From positions 172,932-236,931 of the forward strand of contig CAWCHM010000009.1 of NCBI GenBank assembly GCA_963795355.1: DNA of 64,000 bases, read 5' to 3'. This document shows positions 23,206 through 37,436 of this stretch, piece by piece. Position numbers and translations under genes: made by a program. Source of the DNA: an uncultured Acidobacteriota bacterium (GTDB lineage: Bacteria; Acidobacteriota; Terriglobia; Acidiferrales; UBA7541). How positions within the stretch are numbered: the stretch's first letter is position 1; each line of letters begins with the position of its first letter. The notes beneath the pieces are model-generated. The model was not told the DNA's origin. It saw nothing but the letters and a program-made list of their open reading frames with translations, and did not search any database.

Positions 23206-24960
23206 CTAAAACTGGACGCTCAACCCGCCTCGAAACGTCCGAAACGCCGGAACCAGCGTCGTTCGTCCGTCCGCCGAGTTCAGGGTAACGTACCCTTGCG
23301 CCAAAATATTGTCGCAATCCGCGATCGCCTGCCACCGGCCCAAGCCAAATCGCGGCAGGGTCTGGCGAATCCCGAGGTGAAGATATGGGTCCATCTGATA
23401 CTGCGCGGCGCCGTAGCTATCCACGCGGGAGATCGCATTCCCACTTACCCAGTTGTACCCTGCGACGACTTTAGTTCCCGAGCGCGGGAGCTTTGCCGTA
23501 ACCGAACCGCCCGCCGAGCTATGCATGGCGGTCTTCAACATCTCGCGCAAGGCGCCTACGGCTGCGTCGTCCGGGCTAAGCGCGCCGGCATAGGAATACA
23601 CCGCCGTAACCTCAATATTGTCGGACAGCTGTTCGCGGACGGCGACACGCGTCCCCCAGCTGTTCATCGAACCGCCGTCATAGGCGAACGCGTTCGAGAA
23701 GTAATCCTGCAGGTAATCGGAAGCCGGAAGGTCGCCACCGCGTCCATAAAGGGCGGTGTTGCGGTCGTCGTCGTGGAAAGCCGCGACTTGGACGTCGCTG
23801 TGCGGACCAAGCTTGCGTGTAGCTGAGATTTCTTCGTGCCAGCCACCTTCCAGCACGGGGCTGCCACCGCGCCAAAGCAGAGTTGGGAAGGAATCGAGCT
23901 CGCTGACCGCAGCGGCCAGATCGGCGCTTGCGTCGCGATCTTCGGGATCGAGCGGCGCCATCCCGCCAGGCTCCTCGGCAAAAATCACTGCGGCGCGCCA
24001 GGCATCCGAAATCTTGGCATCGAGTTCAAGGCGTGGGCGCAGCGACATTGCAGACTTGTCCAGCCCGACCATCACGTACTCGCCGCTATACAACATCTTC
24101 AGACGCTCGCCCAGACCGACCGAGCCGGCCTGCTGCATGCGCACACCACGGAACGTTTGTCCGTCAGGGCCAAGCTTCGCTTCGCGCAAAACCAACGTCG
24201 ATTGCGGACCCGACATCGAGCCCGTCGGCAACCAGATCGTCGCGATGCCGCCGCCGGGCGCATCGTCCATGTAATTCATTTGCCCCGCCATCAGGAGGCG
24301 AGCGGTGTGGCCAAGGCGCTGATCGTAAGCGAAAGCAGTCGCGGGCGCGGACGGAACACCGGAGGGCGAACCGGGACGCCGGGCGCCGTCGGTGAAATCG
24401 AGGCGCGCTTTCGGATGCGCCATGTGCGTGTCGATGACGCGGGTGTTCGACACAACATCAGCATTCGCTTCGTCCTCATCCACCCACTGCAATACCGGGC
24501 GAGTCGCGGACGCCGAACGCAGCACCCATTTCCAATCGTCGGATTCGATCGTTGTCGCCGAGGGAGTACGCCGCAGCGCATCGAGCGAAGCGAACATCGA
24601 TTCGAGCTGTACGCGCACCACCGTCGTTACATGCGGATTGATGCGAACGTGCTGCTCGATCGTCGGCAAAAATCCCGCGAGCGTGACGCGCACGGTGTAC
24701 ATGCCCGGGAGAACTTTGTCGCTGCGGAAAACGCCTTGCGTGTTGGTAAGGAAATCGACGGCGCCAATCGTGCCGGCCGTTTCCGAAATGAGCTGCACTG
24801 TCGCGCCCATCTGCGGAATGCCGCTCGTGTCATTGACTACGCCGGCTACTTTACCGGGAGATGCTTTGAATTGCTGTGCAGGGGTAACCGAAGCGCAGAT
24901 CGACAGACACGTCCCGGCAAGGAAAAATGCGCCGAGAATTCGGAGTCGTGTCTGCTTCAC
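23206..24960 (-). CDS. Exported protein with a carboxypeptidase-regulatory-like domain and a probable outer-membrane beta-barrel
   Basis: Signal peptide, GKVAGVVNDTSGIPQMGATV...PGMYTVRV, alternating beta-strand pattern and C-terminal GLSVQF. Confidence 0.7.
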   Translation of the reverse strand: MKQTRLRILGAFFLAGTCLSICASVTPAQQFKASPGKVAGVVNDTSGIPQMGATVQLISETAGTIGAVDFLTNTQGVFRSDKVLPGMYTVRVTLAGFLPTIEQHVRINPHVTTVVRVQLESMFASLDALRRTPSATTIESDDWKWVLRSASATRPVLQWVDEDEANADVVSNTRVIDTHMAHPKARLDFTDGARRPGSPSGVPSAPATAFAYDQRLGHTARLLMAGQMNYMDDAPGGGIATIWLPTGSMSGPQSTLVLREAKLGPDGQTFRGVRMQQAGSVGLGERLKMLYSGEYVMVGLDKSAMSLRPRLELDAKISDAWRAAVIFAEEPGGMAPLDPEDRDASADLAAAVSELDSFPTLLWRGGSPVLEGGWHEEISATRKLGPHSDVQVAAFHDDDRNTALYGRGGDLPASDYLQDYFSNAFAYDGGSMNSWGTRVAVREQLSDNIEVTAVYSYAGALSPDDAAVGALREMLKTAMHSSAGGSVTAKLPRSGTKVVAGYNWVSGNAISRVDSYGAAQYQMDPYLHLGIRQTLPRFGLGRWQAIADCDNILAQGYVTLNSADGRTTLVPAFRTFRGGLSVQF

Positions 24961-24966
24961 TTCGCT

Positions 24967-26718
24967 TTATCTCCCCGGAGCTGCTTTGGCGGTATTGGCG
25001 GCCGTCTTCGTTTCGGCTGGCGGCTTGATTGAGAAATCCGCGGTCTTGGAAATCGTCTTCTGCGTGTTTGCGTCGGTCGCCACGATTTCGAGCGAATACT
25101 TGCCCGGCGTGAGTGTCGCGAGCGGCAGCAGGCGTTCGATCGTGACCTGCTCGCCGGTCTGCTTCATCTCTTCCGACGTTTCCTTGAACTGCATGATCTG
25201 CTGGTCGCCCTTCTTCACCGTGTAGAGGAAGGTGGCGGCGGACTTGTGCGTCTTGTCGTCCTGCTTCAGGTTGTAAACCTGCATATAAATGCCGAGTTTT
25301 TCGTTGTTCATGAACGCGCCGTCGAGCCGTGGCACAACTTTGGTCGAGCCCAGCACGAACTGGCCGGTGCCGATCTGCTTCGATGGAACGTGCTCGAGCT
25401 TGCCGCCGTCCGCAACGATCAGCGAACTGGCTTCGAGCTTGTCGTCCTCAAAGCGCGGGACCTGCAGACGCGTGTTCACGACGCCGACGTTGCCGCTTTT
25501 CACGTCCTTGATGACGATGTCGAGCCGATAGAGGCCTGGACGCAGCGGAACGGCCTTCTGATAAATCGACTGGAGCTTCAGCGATTGCTGATAGAGGCTC
25601 TCCGGGAAGTCGCGGCTGACTGGATCTTCAAACGTCTGCACGACGCGGCCGGTCAGCGAGCTGACGCGACCAAAAACGTTGAGCGTCGCGGAATAGACGC
25701 CATCCTTGGAGTTGAACGAAAGCTGATTGTTCGGAACCTGAACCGTAATCGGAACCAACACGGTGTCGTTGGTCACCTTGACGTAGTCCGTGCCCCAGTT
25801 GAATTTCATCTGGTCGCGCACGATACGCGCGGTGACGATCGCCTCGAGGTCCTTATACTTCACTTCGGGCGGTTTGAATGCCTTGGAATACTGCTCGAGG
25901 CGGTTGAATTCGTCCATGCTCGACGGTGTTCCGCCAAGCGCGGTCGGCGTCGTCATGCCGTCGGCGCGCGTGAAGCGATCCGTCTTCGACGCCATGCCCA
26001 TTTCTTCCAGCAAGCTCAAGCCGGCGCCGGGAACGTGCAGCAACGCGTCCTTTTCGCCCGGGTCCATCGTCAGGTGATATTCACCCGAGCTCGATGGATC
26101 GACGAATTCCCAAATTACGTTTTCGCCGATGCCTTCCATGTAGCGATAACGCCAGGTTTCCCAGGGATACGTCGTGGTCGAACCGCCGCCTTCATCCATC
26201 GGACGGTCGTAAGTGCCGCCCGTCGGATGCGCTTCGATTTCGTCCGGCGCTCCCCACATGATGTACATGCGGCCGCGATCCGTTTTCCATCCCGGAATAC
26301 CCGAAGCGAAATGCTCGTTGGCATATGCGATGCGGCGATAGTGCTCTTCTTTGAAGTCGTTATCGGGCAAATCCGGATTCGCGCTGCGGCGCAGCCAGAA
26401 TTGCTCGATGAATTGTTCGCGCTCTTCGTTGGTCGCGAGTTGCAGGAAGGCTTGGCGCTCTTCCGGCGAAATAATGTAGATAACGTCTTCGTTCAGCCAC
26501 TGCTTGTAAGGAGTGTCGAGTTCCTTCAGCGTCTTCTTTAATTTTCTTTTTTGTTCTTTATCGAGCTTTTGCAGAGGGGGCGGAGCGGCGGTGGGATCGA
26601 CCGGCGCTTGCGCTTGAGGTTTGGACTCCCCTTGCGCTTGCATTGGCGGAGGTACACAAATGGAGAGAGAGAAAAGGACAGCAGACAGGGTACGGACTAC
26701 CCGAGACATGATTACCAC
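24967..26718 (-). CDS. GWxTD domain-containing exported protein
   Basis: YKQWLNEDVIYII...FIEQFWLRR...EEHYRRIAYANEHF...GWKTDRGRMYIMWG, plus a signal peptide and beta-rich C-terminal domains. Confidence 0.92.
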   Translation of the reverse strand: MVIMSRVVRTLSAVLFSLSICVPPPMQAQGESKPQAQAPVDPTAAPPPLQKLDKEQKRKLKKTLKELDTPYKQWLNEDVIYIISPEERQAFLQLATNEEREQFIEQFWLRRSANPDLPDNDFKEEHYRRIAYANEHFASGIPGWKTDRGRMYIMWGAPDEIEAHPTGGTYDRPMDEGGGSTTTYPWETWRYRYMEGIGENVIWEFVDPSSSGEYHLTMDPGEKDALLHVPGAGLSLLEEMGMASKTDRFTRADGMTTPTALGGTPSSMDEFNRLEQYSKAFKPPEVKYKDLEAIVTARIVRDQMKFNWGTDYVKVTNDTVLVPITVQVPNNQLSFNSKDGVYSATLNVFGRVSSLTGRVVQTFEDPVSRDFPESLYQQSLKLQSIYQKAVPLRPGLYRLDIVIKDVKSGNVGVVNTRLQVPRFEDDKLEASSLIVADGGKLEHVPSKQIGTGQFVLGSTKVVPRLDGAFMNNEKLGIYMQVYNLKQDDKTHKSAATFLYTVKKGDQQIMQFKETSEEMKQTGEQVTIERLLPLATLTPGKYSLEIVATDANTQKTISKTADFSIKPPAETKTAANTAKAAPGR

Positions 26719-27302: not shown

Positions 27303-27666
27303 GAGAAAAGTGCAGTTTACAGAAAAGCTTCTCCGCGTCAAGTGGTACAGACCGCCAGGTGTGGCGTGGCGGACAAGGGCAATACCGCTGAGTTCCGAAC
27401 GCAACAGGCCCGACGGACAACCTGCAGGCAGATTAGATGATGCTTCCCGATTTGGGAATCAGAGAAAACCAGGGAGCGCCACCCCTCCTGCGCGGCCGGA
27501 AGCGTCGTGCAACGCCGAGGTTGCGACCCGATTCTAAGAGGCTTAGGATGTTGGTAGGTGGCCCAAGGTTTCAAAAACCCTGGTTTCGTGCCCATGGGTT
27601 CAAAGCCACGGGTTCTGGCATCCAATGAGTCTCGCACGACAGGCATCAAGAAGACGGTTCTCCAAA

Positions 27667-28344
27667 ATGGCTAAACAGTCTCTTGCAGGTCGAGGATTTG
27701 GACGGGTTTTCCGGCTGGGCGTGATGCGCGGGCTCCGGTCCGTGGAAGTGAACCCGGATGATTTCCGGAAGCAACTGGCGAACAAGCACGGGCTGTGGAT
27801 ACCCAACTTTTCGCGCATGCATGATGTGCCCCTGGAGCATCTGGACGCGATCGCCAAGAAGTTGATCCGCGATGCGGAGCGGTTGGCGCTGGCGGAAGGC
27901 GCGGGGCTCGGTCTGGGCGGCATGATGACCGTGATCCCCGACACCGGCTTGCTGACAGCGATTACCTTGCGGCTGATTCAGCGGCTGTGCCTGCTCTATG
28001 GGTTCGAGCAACGCGGCGTGGACGACCGGATGGAGTTGTGGCTAGCGGCAGCGACCGCGACCGGCGTTGATTACGGCAAGGATCTCGTCGAGAAGCAGAT
28101 GTTCGAGAAAGTTGCGCCAAAGATCGCGCAGCGGCTGGCGACCAAGCTCGGAGCCGAAGCGGCCGAGAAGTGGGTTGGGCGGATGATTCCGCTGGCGAGT
28201 TCGGCGATTGGCGGCGCGCTGAACTTTTCGTTTGTGCGGACGTGGGGATGGCGCGTGCAGAAGAATTTGCGCGAGCGGCACATTTCGACGCGGGCGGCGG
28301 GTGCTCGGCCCGTGTACGGCACCCCGAAACCGGTCCTGGTCTAA
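27667..28344 (+). CDS. EcsC-family protein
   Basis: EGAGLGLGG...LRLIQRLCLLYGF...IPLASSAIGGALN pattern. Confidence 0.75.
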   Translation: MAKQSLAGRGFGRVFRLGVMRGLRSVEVNPDDFRKQLANKHGLWIPNFSRMHDVPLEHLDAIAKKLIRDAERLALAEGAGLGLGGMMTVIPDTGLLTAITLRLIQRLCLLYGFEQRGVDDRMELWLAAATATGVDYGKDLVEKQMFEKVAPKIAQRLATKLGAEAAEKWVGRMIPLASSAIGGALNFSFVRTWGWRVQKNLRERHISTRAAGARPVYGTPKPVLV

Positions 28345-28413: not shown

Positions 28414-28917
28414 ATGCACGTTACCAAGATGTCGCGAAAAAAACTGATTCTGGGATTTGTGTCACTGCCGCTGATTGCGCTGGGCATGATGCTGCTGCCG
28501 CAGCACGCCGCGTCGACGGCAGCGCAAGACACTGGGCAGGACAGCCCGAAAGATCCGGTGCCCGCATATCACTCCGAAGTTCCTCCGGGCCCGATGCCCG
28601 CGACGCTGGCTCCTGAGACGTTCACCGACGCGACAGTGCAGAACGCCTATGCGCTGGCGGCGAAGATAAAAAAAGTTTTGTATCAGCAACCGTGCTACTG
28701 CTACTGCGATCGCCACGCCGGACACGGCAGTCTCCTCGACTGCTACACCGGCAAGCACGCTGCGGATTGCGGCGTCTGCCTGCGCGAAGGCCTGTATGCG
28801 TACGAGCAGACCAAGAAGGGCAAGACACCCGCTCAGATTCGCGACGGAATCGAGAAGGGCGAGTGGAAGACCGTCGATATGACGAAGTATCAGATACCTA
28901 TCACAGCCGCGAAGTAA
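28414..28917 (+). CDS. PCYCGC-motif-type exported Cys/His-rich protein (PCYCYC variant)
   Basis: Signal peptide, QQPCYCYCDRHAGHGSLLDCY and HAADCGVC. Confidence 0.75.
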   Translation: MHVTKMSRKKLILGFVSLPLIALGMMLLPQHAASTAAQDTGQDSPKDPVPAYHSEVPPGPMPATLAPETFTDATVQNAYALAAKIKKVLYQQPCYCYCDRHAGHGSLLDCYTGKHAADCGVCLREGLYAYEQTKKGKTPAQIRDGIEKGEWKTVDMTKYQIPITAAK

Positions 28918-29114: not shown

Positions 29115-29522
29115 ATGAGAATGCGCGGGCAAGTTTGGATGTGGACCCTGGGAATGGCATTGGCGCTTGGACTAGTAGCGGCGCCTTCGCGAGTGGCGGC
29201 CCAGGATAAGGATCACGTGGTTTCGCTCGACGAATTGAAATCGGATGCGGCCAAGCCGGCGCAAACGCGCGACGCGAACGAAGCGGAAGTGCGTCACCTG
29301 TTGCAGACGGAAGCTGGTCAGCAAGCGTTGAAGCAAGCAAAAGTCGACTACGCGAAGGTCGACAAGGCGATCAGCCAACTGAGCGACGACGATCTGGCAA
29401 CGGTGGCCGAGAAGTCGCGCCAGGCCGATCACGACTTCGCCGCCGGTGGATTGTCGCAGACGCTAATCATCGTGATCGTACTGATCGTAATTTTGATCGT
29501 TGTACTCGCTCTCGTTTTTTGA
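29115..29522 (+). CDS. Exported small protein with a very hydrophobic C-terminus (PA2779-like), paralogue 1
   Basis: Signal peptide ending VAA|Q, helical body, LSDDDL...DFAAGG, then a 23-aa I/V/L tail. GGAG RBS. Confidence 0.8.
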   Translation: MRMRGQVWMWTLGMALALGLVAAPSRVAAQDKDHVVSLDELKSDAAKPAQTRDANEAEVRHLLQTEAGQQALKQAKVDYAKVDKAISQLSDDDLATVAEKSRQADHDFAAGGLSQTLIIVIVLIVILIVVLALVF

Positions 29523-29618
29523 CGCTGGGGCCGCCACCTCGTTCGCGTCCTTGCGCCCTTCGGGCGATTAACGGCAGCCATTTTCAGAACGGGCACAAGC
29601 CCGACAGAAACTCTCTTG

Positions 29619-29677
29619 CGCCTCCTGAGCCGTTCGTACACTGAGATTCACCCAGTGGACGAATTTCTCAGGAGGCG
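29619..29677 (+). promoter_or_regulatory. Hairpin that sequesters the Shine-Dalgarno of paralogue 2
   Basis: CGCCTCCTGAG (29619-29629) pairs with CTCAGGAGGCG (29667-29677), which contains AGGAGG. Inner pairs are TTCGT/ACGAA and CACTG/CAGTG. Confidence 0.6.
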
Positions 29678-29682
29678 TTTTC

Positions 29683-30087
29683 ATGCAGACGAAAAAGATC
29701 ACGCGGTTCGCCACGATGCTGCTCGCCGCAGCCGTGACCGCGGGGCCGATGCTGGCGCAATCGCAAGCCGACAAACATGTCGTCTCGCTCGGTGAGTTGA
29801 ACAAAGACGCCGCGGGGCCAATGCAAGCGCGGCGCGCGAACGAAGCGGATATTCGTCAGCTATTTGCGACCGTCGATGGGCAGAAGGCGCTGAAGTCGGC
29901 CAACGTCGAATACGCGAAAATCGATAGCGCCGTAAGCTCGATGAGCGACGAAGACGTTGCACGCATCTCGAGCCGAGCGCGCGAACTCAATCGGGATTTC
30001 GCCGGTGGTAATTTGACGGACCACGATCTGCTGGTGATTTTGATCGTTGTGTTGATCGTAGTTATCTTGATTGTGGTGCTGCGCTAA
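29683..30087 (+). CDS. Exported small protein with a very hydrophobic C-terminus (PA2779-like), paralogue 2
   Basis: Signal peptide ending MLA|Q. The mature region is about half identical to paralogue 1 by eye. MSDEDV...DFAGG is followed by a 25-aa tail. Confidence 0.82.
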   Translation: MQTKKITRFATMLLAAAVTAGPMLAQSQADKHVVSLGELNKDAAGPMQARRANEADIRQLFATVDGQKALKSANVEYAKIDSAVSSMSDEDVARISSRARELNRDFAGGNLTDHDLLVILIVVLIVVILIVVLR

Positions 30088-30145
30088 GCCGGACGCGATA
30101 AGTTCGCGGTGTCGGTGTTGCCAGCGTCGAGCCGGTTCTGACACG

Positions 30146-30712
30146 ATGCGAACAATTGTTTTGTTGATTGCCAGCTCTCTTTCGGCCGCGGGAGTTTTTG
30201 CCCAAGCGGAAAACGCGGACAAAGCAGGCATCTGGCTCGAGGTTCCTTTCATCAAGCAAACGGTTGAAGGTTGCGGGTCGGCGTCGATTGCGATGCTGCT
30301 GCAATATTGGTCCGCGCACGGGACGCAGATTGCGCCGGAGCGCGCGGACGTGGATGCGATCCAGAAGCAGCTTTATTCGCGCAAGGGACACGGAATTTAC
30401 GCCTCGGACCTGGAAAAATATTTGCGTGAGTCGGGGTTTCGCGTGTTTGCGTTGCGCGGCGAGTGGAGCGATCTTCGCGACCACTTGTCGAAGGGCCGTC
30501 CGCTGATTCTGAGCATCGAACCGGGGAGTTCTCGCGCTCCGCTACACTATGTTGTCGCGACCGGGATGGATTGGCAGCGTGACGCGGTATTTGTGAACGA
30601 CCCGGCGCGCGGCAAACTTTTGCGCATCGAGAGAGCGGAATTCGAGAAAGAATGGCTGGCGACCAAGAATTATTTGTTACTGGCGGTGCCCGCCTCCGCG
30701 CCTGCGGAATAA
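30146..30712 (+). CDS. Stand-alone exported C39-family cysteine peptidase
   Basis: Signal peptide (GVFA|Q) and the triad motifs PFIKQTVEGCG (Q, C), PLHYVV (H) and VNDP (D). No ABC transporter domain. Confidence 0.88.
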   Translation: MRTIVLLIASSLSAAGVFAQAENADKAGIWLEVPFIKQTVEGCGSASIAMLLQYWSAHGTQIAPERADVDAIQKQLYSRKGHGIYASDLEKYLRESGFRVFALRGEWSDLRDHLSKGRPLILSIEPGSSRAPLHYVVATGMDWQRDAVFVNDPARGKLLRIERAEFEKEWLATKNYLLLAVPASAPAE

Positions 30713-32526
30713 TTCGTTTCGTTGTTTTGGTTTTTTTCCTTGTTGCGTCAAACCTTCTATTGAGCGGGTTGAGTTTCGCTCAGCAAGCTTCCTCTACTTC
30801 GGAATCGAAACCGAAAGATGGCGACGTAAAGTCGCCGCTACACGATGGGGAAAAAGAGTCGCGCGCGCACGATCGGGACCAAAAGTTGCCGGCACAAGAC
30901 CCTGCCAGGCTTGCGGACGCGCAAAAGGCGTTTGATGCCGGGCAGTATGCGGATGCGGCGCGGCTGGCTCAGGGCCCACCGAATCCATCGGCTGATCTGG
31001 ATTTTCTGGCCGGGCTTTCGCTCGCGAAGTTACAGCGGTGGCAAGAGGCGCGTGCGGCGTTCTTGCAAGGGCAACGTAAATCGCCGCAGCAGGCGCGGTT
31101 TCTCGTGGAGTTGGCCGGTGTCGACTACAAACTGAGAGATGCACGCGCGGCGAAGCGCGAACTGCGGGCGGCATTGAAGCTGGAGCCGAAAGATAGGTAC
31201 ACGCTGGAATTTCTCGGCACGCTTTATTTTCTCGACGGCAATCTGGAAGCGGCGCTGAAATATTGGAATGCGATCGACAAGCCTCGATTGCGAAAAGTTT
31301 CGGTCGCGCCGCCACCGACGCTCGATCCCGCTTTGCTGCAAAACGCGATTGGATTCAACGCTCCGCAAATTTTAACGCGCGACGCGTTGCTCGGCGCAGA
31401 AGCTCGGCTCAACAATTTGGGAATTTATCCGCACCGGCGTGAGGAGCTCGCTCCCGCGGGCGACGGTAACTACGACTCGACGTTTCACATGGCGGAGCGC
31501 AATCTTTGGGGCGACACCTGGTGGGAAGGCGCGCTGACGTGGCTGAGCGGATTGCCCTACGCGACGATTTATCCGCAGGTTTTTAATCTCGAACACGAGG
31601 CGATAAACGTAACATCGCTGCTGCGGTGGGATTCGGAGAAGCGGCGCGCGTTTGTCGATGGCTCGATGCCACTGCTGCATCAATCGAAATATCGGCTGCA
31701 TGTTTATTTCGATGGCCGCAACGAGAACTGGAATTTGACGAATACATTTTTCGGCGGCGGCCCGGCACTCAGCGATCTGAATGTGCGGCGGGTTGCGGGC
31801 GGCGCGGAGCTGCGCTCGGTGATGAACGGGCGCTGGAGCTGGAGCACCGGAATCGAAATCGCGAATCGATCGTTTCGGAATCTGACGCCGGAGGCGACGG
31901 CTTCGGCCGCGGGCAAAACATTTTTCACCGATGGCAATTCGGTTTCGTATTGGGGGCGCATCGATCGTTCACTGCTGCGATTGCCCGAGCATCGTTTCAC
32001 GATCGTTGGATCGGGCGAAGGACGCGTGGGTCGCGAATTCGCGACGGGCTTCAGATCGTACGGCGCGGTGCGCGGATCGCTGACGGCGCACTGGCTGCCG
32101 CAGGCTACCGGTGACGACTACGAGATGCTGGCTCGCGTGCGCGCGGGCGAAGCGTTTGGCGATATTCCTTTCGACGAGTTGTATCAGTTGGGCATCGAGC
32201 GCGATAACGATTTGTGGCTCCGCGGGCACGCCGGGACCGATGACGGGCGCAAAGGCGCGGCGCCGCTGGGGCGACGATATTTCCTGGCGAACTGGGAATT
32301 GGATAAGCGCGTTTACTCGAACGGGCTTTTTACGGTGAAGCTGGGGCCTTTCGTCGATAACGGGGCGATTGCGGATTCCTCGGGATTGTTTGGATCGCAG
32401 AAGTGGCTCTGGGATACGGGAGCGCAGTGCAAGATCCGTGTTTTGAGCAGCGTGACGGTGGTGCTGATTTATGGCCGCGATCTGCGCGGCGGCAAGAATG
32501 TGTTTTATGGGACAGCGTTGCATTGA
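30652..32526 (+). CDS. Protein with TPR repeats, a POTRA-like segment and an outer-membrane beta-barrel (Omp85/TamA-like)
   Basis: Signal peptide (LSFA|Q), four TPR-like units, AEARLNNLGIY (POTRA-like), and alternating strands (RWSWSTGIEI, YFLANWELDK, TVVLIYGRD). It overlaps the C39 gene by 61 nt; the start is uncertain. Confidence 0.65.
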   Translation: MAGDQELFVTGGARLRACGIIRFVVLVFFLVASNLLLSGLSFAQQASSTSESKPKDGDVKSPLHDGEKESRAHDRDQKLPAQDPARLADAQKAFDAGQYADAARLAQGPPNPSADLDFLAGLSLAKLQRWQEARAAFLQGQRKSPQQARFLVELAGVDYKLRDARAAKRELRAALKLEPKDRYTLEFLGTLYFLDGNLEAALKYWNAIDKPRLRKVSVAPPPTLDPALLQNAIGFNAPQILTRDALLGAEARLNNLGIYPHRREELAPAGDGNYDSTFHMAERNLWGDTWWEGALTWLSGLPYATIYPQVFNLEHEAINVTSLLRWDSEKRRAFVDGSMPLLHQSKYRLHVYFDGRNENWNLTNTFFGGGPALSDLNVRRVAGGAELRSVMNGRWSWSTGIEIANRSFRNLTPEATASAAGKTFFTDGNSVSYWGRIDRSLLRLPEHRFTIVGSGEGRVGREFATGFRSYGAVRGSLTAHWLPQATGDDYEMLARVRAGEAFGDIPFDELYQLGIERDNDLWLRGHAGTDDGRKGAAPLGRRYFLANWELDKRVYSNGLFTVKLGPFVDNGAIADSSGLFGSQKWLWDTGAQCKIRVLSSVTVVLIYGRDLRGGKNVFYGTALH

Positions 32527-32784: not shown

Positions 32785-33066
32785 TTGGATTTTGACAGTT
32801 CGTATCTCCCATCAAATCCGGCACTTGGCGCAAAACGGTCGTTCGAATTCGATTGAAAGAGTTGAGGAGATTGCTACTGCGGCGGAACAAATTCGGGACT
32901 GAGTTGCGCGAGGCAATTGCCCCAGTCGTGCTCGATGACGATCGGTTCCAGAACCAGATTGGGGAGACGGGTGTGTCGGGGAGATGCTGGCGTGCGTCTA
33001 TATTTGCGGGGCGATGGGGTTGAGTGGGTGCATGTCGCGTTGGCCTGGGTGGGAGTTGTCCAAATC

Positions 33067-33094
33067 CCGCGATCTGTAAAACGATCGCGGCTAC
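33067..33094 (-). repeat. GTAG-tagged REP (CCGCGATC family), copy 1
   Basis: Minus-strand GTAG-CCGCGATC-N8-GATCGCGG; a second copy lies at 58992-59019. Confidence 0.75.
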
Positions 33095-33107
33095 AGGGTG
33101 GTGTTTT

Positions 33108-35159
33108 GTGATTCGGAGATTGATGGCGGTGGTGGGTGTGATGGTTTTTGTTTTGGTGGGAGGGCTGATGGCGATGGCGGGACCGCGCGGTGGGGCGGAT
33201 GCGCCGGGTTACTGGGGATTCGATACGAAGAATCTCGATCGGACGTGCAAGCCTTGCGACGATTTTTTTGAGTTTGCGATGGGCGGGTGGATGAAGGCGA
33301 ATCCGATTCCGCCGCAGTATCCGCGATGGGGATCGTTCACCGTGCTGCTGGACAAGAATCAGCAGAATTTGCGGACGATTCTGGATACGGAAGAGAAGAC
33401 GACCGCGAAGACGGGTTCGAACGAGCAGAAGATCGGCGATTTTTATGCGAGCTGCATGGACACGGCGGCGATCGACACGGCGGGCGCGAAGGCGATCGAG
33501 CCGGATATGGCGCGAATCGCGGCGGTGAAGAACACGACGGAATTGCAGGCGGAAGCGACGCGATTGCAGGAGAGCGGGATCAACGTGATGTTCCGATTCG
33601 GATCGCGACAGGATGCGAAGGATAGTTCGCAGGTGATCGCTACGGCAAGTCAGGGCGGACTGGGACTGCCGGAGCGCGACTATTATCTGCGCGACGACGA
33701 GAAGTCGAAGAAGCTGCGCGACGACTATCTGAAGCACGCGACGAAACTGTTTGAGCTGTTGGGCGACCCGGCGGACAAGGCAGCCGTGGAAGCAAGCGCG
33801 ATCATGGCGATCGAAACATCGCTGGCGAAGGCTTCAATGTCGAACGTGGATGTGCGCGATCCGCACAAAACGTACAACCGGATGACTGCGGAGGAAGCGC
33901 AGAAGCTGACACCGGATTTTTCGTGGAAGGCGTACTTCACGGAAGTGGGGCAGCCGGGGCTGAAAGAATTGAACGTCGGGCAGCCGGACTTTTTCAAGGC
34001 GCTGAACGCGGAATTGACGACTGTGCCGGTCGAAAACTGGAAAACGTATCTGCGGTGGAGGTTGGTGGATGTGACGGCGCCGGGGCTGTCGGAGCCGTTC
34101 GTGACAGAGGATTTCGATTTTCACGACAAGGATTTGCGCGGTGCGAAGGAAATTTTGCCGCGATGGAAGCGGTGTGTGCAGGCAACGGACCGGAATCTGG
34201 GCGAAGCGCTCGGGCAGGTCTACGTGGAGAAGTATTTCCCACCGGAGGCGAAGGCGCATGCGCTGGAGATGGTGCACAACCTGGTAGCGGCGCTGCACGA
34301 CGATTTGCAACAGCTGCCGTGGATGAGCCCGGAGACGCGGGCGCAGGCGACGGCGAAGTTACAAGCGTTTGGCGTGAAGATCGGGTATCCGGACAAGTGG
34401 CGGGATTATTCGGGGCTGACGATCGATCGCACGTCGTATATGCAGAACGAATTGCGAAGCGCGGCGTTTGAATTTCACCGGCAGGTGGAGAAGATCGGCA
34501 AGCCGGTGGATCGGACGGAATGGGGAATGACGCCTCCGACAGTGAACGCGTACAACCGCAGCAGCATGAACGAGATTGTTTTTCCGGCGGGGATTTTGCA
34601 GCCGCCATTTTACGACCCGAAAGCGGACGATGCCGTGAATTACGGCGGGATGGGCGCGGTGATCGGGCATGAGATCACGCATGGATTCGACGATCAGGGA
34701 AGCAAATTTGACGGGAAGGGGAATTTGCGCGATTGGTGGACGGCGGAGGATCAGAAGAATTTCAAGGAACGCGCGACATGCGTTTCGGATCAGTTCGACG
34801 GTTATGTCGTGGATGGGGATTTGCACGAAAACGGAAAACTGGTGCTGGGAGAAAGCATCGCGGACCTTGGCGGGCTGACGATCGCGTACGCGGCGTACGA
34901 GAAATCGTTGGAGGGAAAGCCGCGTCCGCCAGAGAAGGATGGGTTTACGCCGGAGCAGCGATTCTTTCTGGGATGGGCGCAGGTGTGGGGCGCGAACGAG
35001 CGGCTGGAGTATGCGCGGCTGCAGACGAATACCGATCCGCATCCATTGGCGAGATTTCGCGGGAATGGGCCGCTGTCGAATATGGCGGATTTCGCGAAGG
35101 CGTTTGGGTGCAAGAAGGGCGATGCGATGGTGCGGGAGAAGGTCTGCAAGATCTGGTGA
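33108..35159 (+). CDS. M13-family zinc metallopeptidase (neprilysin/PepO-like), copy 1
   Basis: PCDDFFEFAMGGW, GHEITHGFDD (HExxH), GESIAD, HP...RGNGPL and C-terminal CKIW. Start is GTG 33108 or ATG 33123. Confidence 0.95.
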   Translation: MIRRLMAVVGVMVFVLVGGLMAMAGPRGGADAPGYWGFDTKNLDRTCKPCDDFFEFAMGGWMKANPIPPQYPRWGSFTVLLDKNQQNLRTILDTEEKTTAKTGSNEQKIGDFYASCMDTAAIDTAGAKAIEPDMARIAAVKNTTELQAEATRLQESGINVMFRFGSRQDAKDSSQVIATASQGGLGLPERDYYLRDDEKSKKLRDDYLKHATKLFELLGDPADKAAVEASAIMAIETSLAKASMSNVDVRDPHKTYNRMTAEEAQKLTPDFSWKAYFTEVGQPGLKELNVGQPDFFKALNAELTTVPVENWKTYLRWRLVDVTAPGLSEPFVTEDFDFHDKDLRGAKEILPRWKRCVQATDRNLGEALGQVYVEKYFPPEAKAHALEMVHNLVAALHDDLQQLPWMSPETRAQATAKLQAFGVKIGYPDKWRDYSGLTIDRTSYMQNELRSAAFEFHRQVEKIGKPVDRTEWGMTPPTVNAYNRSSMNEIVFPAGILQPPFYDPKADDAVNYGGMGAVIGHEITHGFDDQGSKFDGKGNLRDWWTAEDQKNFKERATCVSDQFDGYVVDGDLHENGKLVLGESIADLGGLTIAYAAYEKSLEGKPRPPEKDGFTPEQRFFLGWAQVWGANERLEYARLQTNTDPHPLARFRGNGPLSNMADFAKAFGCKKGDAMVREKVCKIW

Positions 35160-35318
35160 GGGCGTGATGAAAACGAGGGTAGGCTAGGGTGCCACCGGGC
35201 GCTCGAGAATAACCTTTCGTTTTTGGCGGCTTAGCGTCTAAATAGCGACGGATTCGTGCGGTTCGGCCCAGGTCTGGGTCATCGGACAAATCAAATCGGA
35301 TTGTTGGTTGCGGACATG

Positions 35319-35343
35319 GGGCGCAGCGTCGCTGCGCCCGTAC
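35319..35343 (-). repeat. REP-like palindrome, GTAC/A-GGGCGCAGC family
   Basis: GGGCGCAGC-GTC-GCTGCGCCC-GTAC; other copies at 45349-45376 and, degenerate, near 59066. Confidence 0.7.
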
Positions 35344-35372
35344 ATGATTCGGCAGAAAGTTTGGAGAGAACG

Positions 35373-37436
35373 ATGATGCTGCGGCGGATGTGTGCGATGG
35401 CGGGGCTGGTGGTGGCGATTCTGGCCGGAACGACAATGGCGTTTGCCGGCGGGCAAGGCACGGCGGACGACAATGCAAAACTTGGTTTCAGCGTCGCGAA
35501 TATGGACACCACATGCAAGCCTTGCGATGACTTTTACAAGTACATCAATGGCGGATGGATGAAGAAGAATCCGATTCCGGCGCAGTATCCGGCGTGGGGC
35601 CCGGATCAAATCATGTTTGAGCGGACTGAGGCGCGGCTGCACGACATTTTAGAGGCGGCGGCAGCGAACAAGTCGGCGGCGGCGGATTCGAACGAGCAGA
35701 AAGTCGGCGATTACTACGCGAGCTGCATCGACACGAAAGCGATCGATGCGAAGGGGCTGAAGCCGCTCGACGGATATTTGCAGAGCATTGCAGCGATGCA
35801 CGACGGTGCGTCGCTACTGGAAACCGCGGCGCGATTGCAGGAGCAGGGCACCAACGTGTTGTTTGGGTATGGCTCGGATCAGGATTTTGCCGACAGCACG
35901 CAGGTGATCGGCGAGGTGCGGCAAGCCGGGCTTGGATTGCCGGATCGCGACTACTACACGCGCGACGACGACAAATCGAAGGAAATCCGGAAGCAGTACA
36001 TCGAGCACATGACGAAGATGTTTGTGCTGATGGGCGACGCGAAGGAATACGCGGCGAAGGAAGCGGAGACCGTGCTGGGGATCGAGACTTCGCTGGCGAA
36101 AGCTTCGCTGAATAACGTCGATCTGCGCGATCCGCAGAAAAACTACCACATGATGAGCGTGGCGGACGCGCAGAAGCTGACGCCGCACTGGAATTGGGAC
36201 GCGTATTTCCACGCGATTGGGAGCCCACAGCTGACCAAGATGAACGTGTCGCAGCCGGAATTTTTCAAGGCGATGAACGAGCTTCTCGCGAGCGTCTCGA
36301 TGGACGACTGGAAGACATACTACCGGTGGCAGTTGATTCACCGGTCGGCGCGGCTGCTGTCGGATCCGTTTGTGCAAGAGAACTTCGATTTTTCGGGGCG
36401 CGTGCTCGAAGGTACGACGGAGATGCGCGTGCGATGGCGGCGGTGTTCAGCGGCTGTGGACGACGGATTGCCGGAAGCGCTCGGGCAGATGTATGTGGCG
36501 AAATATTTTCCGCCGGCGGCGAAGGCGCGCGTGCTGGAGATGGTCCACAACCTGTTGGCGGCTTTGCACGAGGATTTGAAAGGCTTGGAATGGATGAGCC
36601 CGGAGACGAGGCAAGCCGCAGCCGAGAAACTGCAAGCGTTTGCGCTGAAGATCGGGTATCCGGACAAATGGCGCGATTATTCGAAACTGAAAATCGATCG
36701 CGAGTCATATGTCGGTAATGTGTTTCGCTCGACGGAGTTTGAAACCGCGCGCGACCTGGCGAAAATCGGCAAACCCGTCGATCACGCGGAATGGGGCATG
36801 TCGGCGCCGACGATCAACGCTTACTATAATCCGCAAATGAACGAGATCGTCTTTCCGGCAGGAATTTTGCAGGGCGTGTTTTTTGATCCCGACCGGGCGG
36901 ATTCGTATAACTACGGCGCGATTGGTTCGATCATTGGACATGAAATCACGCACGGGTTCGACGATCAGGGAGCGCAGTTCGATCCCAAGGGAAATCTGAA
37001 GAACTGGTGGACCGAGAAGGACCTGAAGAATTTTCAGGGTCGCGGGGAGTGCATTGCGAAGCAATTCGACGGATTCGAAATCGAAAAGGGGTTGCACGAA
37101 AACGGGAAGCTTGTCGAAGGCGAGAGCATCGCGGACCTCGGTGGGCTGACGATTTCGTATGCGGCGTTCGAAAAATCGATGCCGCCGGGCATTGCGGGTA
37201 AGACGAAGGATGCGAATGGATTCACGCCGCAGCAGCAATTCTTTGTGGGATATGCGGCGGTGGCGGCGATGAATTTGCGGCCAGAGTATGCGCGGTTGTT
37301 GGCGAATACCGATCCGCATCCGTTGCCGGAATTTCGCGTGAATGGGCCGCTTTCGAATATGGAGGCGTTCAAGAAGGCGTTTGGATGCGAGAAGGGGCAG
37401 CCGATGGTGCGGGAGGATGTTTGCAAGATTTGGTGA
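35373..37436 (+). CDS. M13-family zinc metallopeptidase, copy 2 (tandem paralogue)
   Basis: PCDDFYKY, NAYY, GHEITHGFDD, GESIAD and CKIW. Start taken at MMLRR, near a GGAG RBS. Confidence 0.95.
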   Translation: MMLRRMCAMAGLVVAILAGTTMAFAGGQGTADDNAKLGFSVANMDTTCKPCDDFYKYINGGWMKKNPIPAQYPAWGPDQIMFERTEARLHDILEAAAANKSAAADSNEQKVGDYYASCIDTKAIDAKGLKPLDGYLQSIAAMHDGASLLETAARLQEQGTNVLFGYGSDQDFADSTQVIGEVRQAGLGLPDRDYYTRDDDKSKEIRKQYIEHMTKMFVLMGDAKEYAAKEAETVLGIETSLAKASLNNVDLRDPQKNYHMMSVADAQKLTPHWNWDAYFHAIGSPQLTKMNVSQPEFFKAMNELLASVSMDDWKTYYRWQLIHRSARLLSDPFVQENFDFSGRVLEGTTEMRVRWRRCSAAVDDGLPEALGQMYVAKYFPPAAKARVLEMVHNLLAALHEDLKGLEWMSPETRQAAAEKLQAFALKIGYPDKWRDYSKLKIDRESYVGNVFRSTEFETARDLAKIGKPVDHAEWGMSAPTINAYYNPQMNEIVFPAGILQGVFFDPDRADSYNYGAIGSIIGHEITHGFDDQGAQFDPKGNLKNWWTEKDLKNFQGRGECIAKQFDGFEIEKGLHENGKLVEGESIADLGGLTISYAAFEKSMPPGIAGKTKDANGFTPQQQFFVGYAAVAAMNLRPEYARLLANTDPHPLPEFRVNGPLSNMEAFKKAFGCEKGQPMVREDVCKIW

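Follow-up and report, generated by a model that had tools for sequence, protein, structure and literature searches.

A split, two-precursor, Omp85-coupled variant of the PA2778/PA2779 protease–substrate pair in Acidobacteriota

The closest catalogued relatives of the system described here are the PA2778 and PA2779 families, named after Pseudomonas aeruginosa genes and catalogued without an assigned function. A small protein with a signal peptide, a helical domain, an [A/G][A/G]G motif and a C-terminal transmembrane helix (PA2779; NF033919, DUF6627) is encoded there next to a secreted C39 peptidase with tetratricopeptide repeats (TPRs; PA2778, NF033920). PA2779 has been mentioned as a hypothetical gene (PMC3985676) and PA2778 as an untested toxin candidate of the type VI secretion system (bioRxiv 10.1101/733030); our literature search found no paper on a C39-Omp85 system, on DUF6627 or on the function of PA2778/PA2779. 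Here we analyse a four-gene module that appears to join such a pair to an Omp85-type barrel. It lies in a 64,000-nucleotide (nt) stretch of an uncultured soil acidobacterium of the Acidiferrales (assembly GCA_963795355.1, contig CAWCHM010000009.1, positions 172,932 to 236,931 of the forward strand), which we call the window and from whose first letter all coordinates are counted. Omp85 proteins have a central part in building the outer membrane and in secretion, and their architectures are considered to be few. TPRs are not mentioned in a 2014 survey of those architectures.

The module occupies window positions 29115–32526 on the + strand and consists, in this order, of preA and preB, which encode two small precursor proteins, a C39 peptidase gene, and a gene whose product we call D (Table 1). 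An open reading frame (ORF) check bears out the four co-directional genes first reported in a reading made from the letters alone (hereafter the sequence-only reading). The two small proteins, described there as paralogues of about 135 residues with tails of I, V and L, share 42% identity and end in tails of 24–25 residues that include an I/L/V stretch of 18–19 residues.

These genes belong together. The order precursor(s)-C39-D, with one or two precursors, was found in 15 of 15 relatives' loci and again in 76 of the 77 species-representative loci possessing upstream DNA; the records of the latter are mostly Candidatus Acidoferrum/Acidiferrum or Terriglobia, with a few under other phylum names. 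Across 61 relatives the co-occurrence is perfect: D adjoins the precursor in each of the 17 genomes that have one, 43 genomes have neither, and the only one of the 18 D-bearing genomes without a precursor has its D at the start of a contig. Most genomes carrying the module have a single precursor. Within the genus the module is present in 16 of 37 genomes (the window's own genome counted), and thus behaves like an accessory element whose genes come and go together. We conclude that the precursor, C39 and D families are obligately coupled genetically, which supports the sequence-only reading.

Two irregular forms were noticed among close relatives. One genome of the same genus (G029:C105:26597-26767, locus L021) has no PA2779-like gene and retains a 57-residue remnant of the D C-terminus at 60% identity, with an in-frame TAG, which looks like a decayed copy of the module. 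At L035 / L103 (G001:C2:1319773-1321399), L093 and L104, D is spread over two overlapping ORFs, reflecting either an assembly frameshift or a pseudogene.

The link to PA2778/PA2779 made by the sequence-only reading stands up to profile comparison. Both small proteins pass the 40-bit cut-off of the NCBIfam model PA2779_fam (NF033919), preA with 43.3 bits and preB with 40.2; both fall below the 27-bit cut-off of Pfam DUF6627 (15.8 and 17.7 bits, respectively). Each shows the PA2779 layout of signal peptide, small helical domain, small-residue motif and hydrophobic C-terminal helix, with a C39 gene adjoining. The peptidase matches Peptidase_C39_2 (PF13529; 8.5e-18, 65.7 bits) and Peptidase_C39 (PF03412; 2.1e-12, 47.4 bits), and its Cys, His and Asp align with the catalytic residues of the ComA peptidase domain. 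The Q/C/H/D set already read as intact (Q38, C43, H134 and D152) is conserved at 97% or more at each position among 78 homologues, and the protein is predicted to be a double-glycine-type cysteine peptidase with an intact catalytic set. With 44.6 bits it stays short of the 150-bit cut-off of NF033920, the PA2778 family equivalog, and it covers profile positions 4–148 of 255; the C-terminal TPR end of the same profile (positions 194–255) matches D instead, at an E-value of 0.041. The gene split in the window falls between C39 and TPR.

The window differs from the P. aeruginosa pair in two respects. Its peptidase has lost, or never had, the TPRs; repeats of that kind are found instead on the POTRA-Omp85 barrel protein, whose gene comes next and overlaps the peptidase gene. 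Moreover there are two precursors, and they carry an HVVS motif that the barrel-less type lacks. The locus is thus a variant of a catalogued but unstudied protease–substrate pair, split, coupled to an Omp85 protein and equipped with two precursors. As to what it does, the balance of the sequence evidence tips, by a little, towards a module in which the C39 peptidase clips the tail anchor of the small proteins and D serves as the outer-membrane partner.

The assignment of D depends on its predicted fold. An AlphaFold2 model built on a 35-sequence alignment has a mean predicted local distance difference test score (pLDDT) of 82.8 and a predicted template modelling score of 0.76, and shows TPR, POTRA and barrel domains; this supports the sequence-only reading, which had a TPR-POTRA-barrel protein with a probable Omp85-like barrel. 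The POTRA elements in the model are the strand 212–219, the helices 226–233 and 243–256, and the strands 263–270 and 273–279. Foldseek against the PDB returned TamA, BamA, Sam50 and CdiB as top matches (about 1e-13 to 6e-11), with alignments to TamA/BamA of 440–560 columns, as against about 325 residues for the barrel alone. The TPRs have further support from Pfam TPR_16 and ANAPC3, from the C-terminal NF033920 match and from TPR sequence matches in the PDB. The model, with 15 long strands plus a short one behind a single POTRA, agrees with the 16-stranded barrel and at least one preceding POTRA expected of an Omp85 protein, and on this model we regard D with confidence as a TPR-POTRA-Omp85 barrel protein.

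D is nevertheless a divergent member of Omp85, since PF01103 does not detect it in either the Pfam scan or a whole-genome PF01103 search and NF047779 matches it only weakly (E 0.0028). A sequence search of the barrel against PDB chains gave TPR matches only, and a profile of the POTRA and barrel region found only 651 representative clusters among 1.84 billion. The fused relatives of D, described below, do match PF01103. Two more familiar identities were considered for D and rejected. It is not a housekeeping BamA, given one POTRA as against five, three canonical PF01103 genes elsewhere in the same genome and the absence of the module from 43 of the 61 relatives. Nor is it a Slam protein of type XI secretion (TPR plus a 14-stranded DUF560 barrel), as its barrel matches Omp85 structures; matches to TPR_Slam were weak and confined to C39-TPR relatives.

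Between the signal peptide and the first TPR of D lies a charged, low-complexity linker with AlphaFold2 confidence below 50, in which the segment STSESKPKDGDVKSPLHDGEKESRAHDRDQKLPAQ aligns against a gap in 14 relatives (alignment A1).

Further support for a single module comes from the way the same domains are arranged elsewhere. Three architectures can be distinguished. In the most common one, type (a), the PA2778 type, a precursor accompanies a C39-TPR fusion of about 320–400 amino acids (aa). Type (b), that of the window, has precursor, C39 and TPR-POTRA-Omp85. In type (c), found in Vicinamibacterales and others and verified within Acidobacteriota, a precursor accompanies a single C39-TPR-POTRA-Omp85 protein of about 650–750 aa, as at loci L177 and L172. 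These fusions have the same domains in the same order, a PA2779-like gene directly upstream and a barrel homologous to that of D (hhalign probability 97% over TPRs, POTRA and barrel, LRGH included); they differ in being one polypeptide, where the window has C39 and TPR split, with a 61-nt overlap and a separate D signal peptide. Type (c) counts 410 homologues of about 650–730 aa, many with PF13529, PF03412 and PF01103 together, which NCBI annotates as 'C39 family peptidase'. An N-terminal C39 domain is present in 6 of the 98 full-length relatives nearest D, and a tree of the barrel region requires at least four changes between the fused and split states, so that the two forms evidently interconvert. 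The existence of the fusions argues that peptidase, TPRs and barrel act as one machine, and together with the recurrent fusion and fission it strengthens the view of the locus as one module.

The overlap of the C39 gene with D (30652–30712) places the C39 stop inside the D reading frame. Overlaps of 55–61 nt recur in most related loci, and the D start, MA..QLD, is conserved among homologues. Overlap and kept start would fit fission of a fused C39-TPR-POTRA-Omp85 gene, or else tight translational coupling.

Looking across the phylum, we found PA2779-family genes in 50 of 401 Acidobacteriota genomes and examined 20 of these contexts. In 17 of them a C39 gene directly adjoins the PA2779-like gene; of the remaining three, one is a precursor without an adjacent C39 and two have no match to the search models. 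The precursor and C39 pair is the only content common so widely across architectures, and three fused-type loci that we compared have no neighbour in common besides the precursor. One locus, L158 (G280:C48), combines a precursor with a stand-alone C39 (198 aa) and a TPR protein of 158 aa encoded on its own, with the contig ending about 700 nt later; it is possibly a fourth layout, though a barrel gene may follow beyond the contig end.

The precursors themselves place the likely cleavage site. Each has a signal peptide, HVVS close to the mature N-terminus, about 75 residues in four predicted helices, FAAG or FAGG, and the tail. Three elements are constant throughout the family in all three architectures: an LSxxDLxxLA helix, [A/G][A/G]G, and a spacer of 3–8 polar residues ahead of the terminal transmembrane helix. 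In an AlphaFold2 precursor model the AAG motif is located in the linker that joins the last soluble helix to the tail helix. Fused-type precursors have AGG and a shorter spacer than those of the window, and tails of both the preA-like and the preB-like subtype recur among relatives.

The sequence-only reading set out from C39 domains that cleave after double-Gly leaders, and for these precursors a strict Gly-Gly site has to be given up. Among 207 distinct close relatives the motif is (D/N/E)(F/I)-AAG in 199, AGG in four, SAG in two and SGG in one, followed by 24–29 residues to the C-terminus. The element conserved ahead of the tail is (D/N)F-A-A-G; since the position that follows the Gly varies, only about 15% of the 207 have a true Gly-Gly.

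If C39 cuts here, either side of the cut could be the product. The roughly 80-residue domain might be a long leader, as in NHLP/Nif11 precursors. The product would then be the freed I/L/V peptide, some 24 residues long, which might act on membranes, form a two-peptide bacteriocin-like pair or serve as a small regulator in the membrane, and which the TPR-Omp85 protein might move outward. The C39 systems that have been studied do discard the part N-terminal to the GG site as a leader, LSxxDLxxLA resembles the leader consensus LSxxELxxI, conservation is higher in the leader-like part than in the tail, and the two paralogues carry distinct tail subtypes. We nevertheless hold a peptide product to be improbable. 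The supposed leader starts with a Sec signal peptide of its own and is predicted to contain a folded domain; the low-complexity tails keep their length and hydrophobicity with no specific sequence, which is typical of anchors; there is one precursor in most genomes and neither an immunity gene nor an ABC transporter; and such a peptide would remain in the inner membrane.

The likeness to the peptidase-containing ABC transporters that process class II bacteriocin leaders extends to a C39 domain with the Q/C/H/D residues and a motif ending in Gly after an LSxxDLxxL-like helix. It ends there: the window's peptidase is predicted to be Sec-exported and has no ABC transporter, the 'leader' has a signal peptide, and the motif stands near the C-terminus before a membrane helix. 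The ORF list and the Pfam and NCBIfam scans show no ABC transporter within several kb of the module and no modifying enzyme nearby. A bacteriocin cluster was rejected, there being no ABC transporter or immunity gene and Sec signals on all proteins, in agreement with the sequence-only reading.

Tails of this kind recall LPXTG/sortase, PEP-CTERM/exosortase and GlyGly-CTERM/rhombosortase, where too a short motif, a transmembrane helix and usually one basic residue form the C-terminus and the processing enzyme is encoded nearby. In those systems, however, the enzyme is a membrane-embedded transpeptidase or rhomboid and the tag is found on many different cargo proteins, whereas here the enzyme is a soluble papain-fold C39 and the tag is restricted to one small protein family.

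On the reading that we favour, with the C39 peptidase clipping a tail anchor, preA and preB would be exported by Sec and, after signal-peptide removal, held in the inner membrane by the C-terminal I/L/V helix, with the helical domain of about 80 residues facing the periplasm. The periplasmic peptidase would cut at or next to FAAG or FAGG, 3–8 residues before the tail helix, and so free the helical domain. D, whose fold is modelled, would be the docking or receiving partner in the outer membrane. Its TPRs, as counterparts of those fused in PA2778, would most likely be the binding site for the LSxxDLxxLA helix of the substrate, for the peptidase or for both, and its POTRA may accept the HVVS strand through beta-augmentation.

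Contact of the substrate with D has some backing in the precursors. In barrel-coupled systems they have a strand-like N-terminal motif (HVVS, QVVD, RVVD or HIAD), where barrel-less systems have PSKT; as the motif tracks the presence of the barrel, this suggests that the POTRA or barrel side touches the substrate N-terminus. It is also suggestive that the fused arm, read from the outer membrane inward (barrel, POTRA, TPR, C39), would be colinear with a substrate lying N-terminus outward, with the cleavage site at the inner membrane. In its boldest form the proposal becomes a protease-gated Omp85 export route, in which the arm captures the anchored protein, C39 clips it at AAG and the protein is threaded N-terminus first to the cell surface; we consider this full sequence of events rather unlikely.

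Several observations weigh against release of a tail-anchored domain and its reception by D. First, there is a problem of geometry: a fused C39 is tethered to the outer membrane, while the site is 3–8 residues from the presumed inner-membrane helix. Second, with P2 mostly Ala and a variable residue after the Gly, the motif is a loose match to a double-glycine site. Third, the precursor model is of moderate confidence (pLDDT 65.8), and a structure search with it against the PDB found no structural relative. Fourth, most PA2779/C39-TPR pairs are barrel-less, so that export is not the core function of the family. Fifth, an Omp85 barrel can merely scaffold a periplasmic enzyme: the enzyme domain of PlpD is periplasmic and is not secreted by its barrel (PMC11116518).

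The last two points bear on a possible objection, namely that D translocates nothing and only anchors its TPRs and the recruited C39 at the inner face of the outer membrane. The module would then be a periplasmic proteolytic switch that releases or destroys an abundant helical protein tethered to the inner membrane, for example an envelope tether, spacer or inhibitor. Such a scaffold would be in keeping with the single POTRA of D and with a model that has no TpsB-like plug helix ahead of the TPRs; a PA2779-family gene is also among the strong constitutive promoters of P. stutzeri, which fits an abundant envelope protein (PMC10155442). Two findings speak for transport instead. One is the N-terminal precursor motif, which varies with the presence of the barrel. 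The other is the conservation of the L6 motif LRGH and the inner-wall motif FVDNG in D homologues; it varies by position, with several positions invariant or nearly so. The L6 and FxDxG motifs of Omp85 proteins are tied to transport or insertion activity. We doubt the scaffold explanation, and lean slightly towards hand-over or export of the freed domain over mere stationing of the machinery at the barrel.

PlpD and FplA (patatin-POTRA-Omp85, formerly type Vd) also resemble D in outline, with an Omp85 barrel, one POTRA and an N-terminal module that is not a POTRA. That module is a lipase in PlpD/FplA but TPR in the window (plus C39 in the fused relatives); the window has a dedicated small substrate gene, and a homodimer is not indicated for D. 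Two-partner secretion (type Vb) likewise places a dedicated Omp85 gene next to a presumed cargo whose N-terminal element the POTRA may recognise. There, however, TpsB has two POTRA domains and an N-terminal plug helix, TpsA is large with a beta-helical two-partner secretion domain, and neither a protease nor a membrane anchor is involved. We rejected it for this locus, since the D model has one POTRA with TPRs in the place of the plug helix and the precursors are helical proteins of 135 aa.

The Pseudomonas Fap system uses a periplasmic C39 peptidase (FapD) and an outer-membrane barrel (FapF) in the secretion of paralogous fibre subunits, and the sequence-only reading drew on this analogy. A functional amyloid or other filament system of the Fap kind would share with the module a periplasmic C39, an outer-membrane barrel and paralogous small proteins, a parallel of parts that is superficial. 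The modelled barrel fold is Omp85, unlike FapF; the predicted precursors consist of helices throughout, end in a transmembrane tail and show no amyloid repeats; and the Pfam and NCBIfam scans show no Fap families, nor are there fapA, fapB, fapC or fapE-like genes nearby. The analogy was rejected on these grounds, and a Fap-like function seems to us highly improbable. More generally, the filament, membrane peptide or toxin that the sequence-only reading offered as product found no support.

Coordinates are collected in Table 1. Signal peptides were assigned by eye from a basic N-region, a hydrophobic core and an AxA/FAQ-type site.

Table 1. Features of the module and its surroundings in the window (nt positions; residues numbered within each protein)
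Feature	Position	Strand	Residues	Description and basis
584-aa protein	23206–24960	-		Carboxypeptidase-regulatory-like N-terminal domain
GWxTD-domain protein	24967–26718	-		6 nt from the gene above
EcsC-family gene	27625–28344	+		PF12787, 4.6e-21
CYCXC family (seleno)protein gene	28414–28917	+		NF041379, 109 bits (cut-off 90); Pfam PCYCGC
preA	29115–29522	+	135 aa	PA2779-family protein; ORF, NF033919 match, AlphaFold2 model
preA signal peptide			1–~29	
preA HVVS			34–37	
preA FAAG	29436–29447		108–111	
preA tail			112–135	GLSQTLIIVIVLIVILIVVLALVF
preA-preB intergenic hairpin	29617–29680	+		GCGCCUCCUGAG pairs with CUCAGGAGGCGU
preB	29683–30087	+	134 aa	PA2779-family paralogue of preA; ORF, NF033919 match
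preB HVVS			32–35	
preB FAGG	29998–30009		106–109	
preB tail				NLTDHDLLVILIVVLIVVILIVVLR
C39 peptidase	30146–30712	+	188 aa	From MRTIV; stand-alone, predicted periplasmic; Pfam, NCBIfam, ComA alignment
C39 signal peptide				MRTIVLLIASSLSAAGVFAQ
Protein D	30652–32526	+	624 aa	Long signal peptide, low-complexity linker, TPR-POTRA-Omp85 barrel (modelled)
D signal peptide			~14–43	Long; followed by the linker
D linker	30780–30895		~44–81	
D TPR domain	30898–31275	+	83–208	Eight helices, about four repeats; AlphaFold2 pLDDT >90
D POTRA domain	31285–31488	+	212–279	Single; beta-alpha-alpha-beta-beta
D Omp85-type barrel	31549–32523	+	~300–624	15 long strands plus a short first one (model)
D L6-loop motif			523–526	LRGH; variant of (V/I)RG(F/Y), His replacing the aromatic residue
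D inner-wall motif			567–571	FVDNG; (F/G)xDxG type
M13 metallopeptidase	33024–35159	+		Neprilysin/PepO-like; signal-anchor-like N-terminus
M13 metallopeptidase	35256–37436	+		Tandem paralogue of the above; signal-anchor-like N-terminus

Upstream of preA neither a sigma-70 nor a sigma-54 promoter consensus was found; its ATG is preceded by GGAG at a distance of 8–9 nt. The 171-nt region between preA and preB is predicted to fold at -68.8 kcal/mol (z-score -3.85 relative to shuffled sequences). Pairing in the hairpin there sequesters the AGGAGG just 5' of the preB ATG, and the hairpin may fix the ratio of preA to preB or serve as an element for processing or stability.

The flanking genes show a narrower association. 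The EcsC-family gene is co-directional with the module and syntenic within the genus only; the CYCXC gene, directly upstream of the module, is kept beside it within the genus only; and the association of the two M13 peptidases downstream is again genus-only. A larger operon that includes the EcsC, CYCXC or M13 genes was rejected, as these flanks are conserved only within the genus and the fused-type loci share only the precursor.

The module does not conform to Fap, two-partner secretion, BamA, Slam or the bacteriocin clusters with peptidase-containing ABC transporters, whose defining features it lacks, and possibly represents a route for processing or export in the envelope that has yet to be described. 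It brings to light a divergent Omp85 clade that is tied genetically to a double-glycine-type protease and a tail-anchored mini-protein, by fusion in some lineages and by overlapping genes in others. For the PA2778/PA2779 families it offers a concrete, testable handle, and the split form found in the window is convenient experimentally because peptidase, barrel and substrates are separate genes. The module may reveal a new way of releasing or exporting envelope proteins; if true, protease-gated export would be a new branch beside type V secretion and would give these two families their first function.

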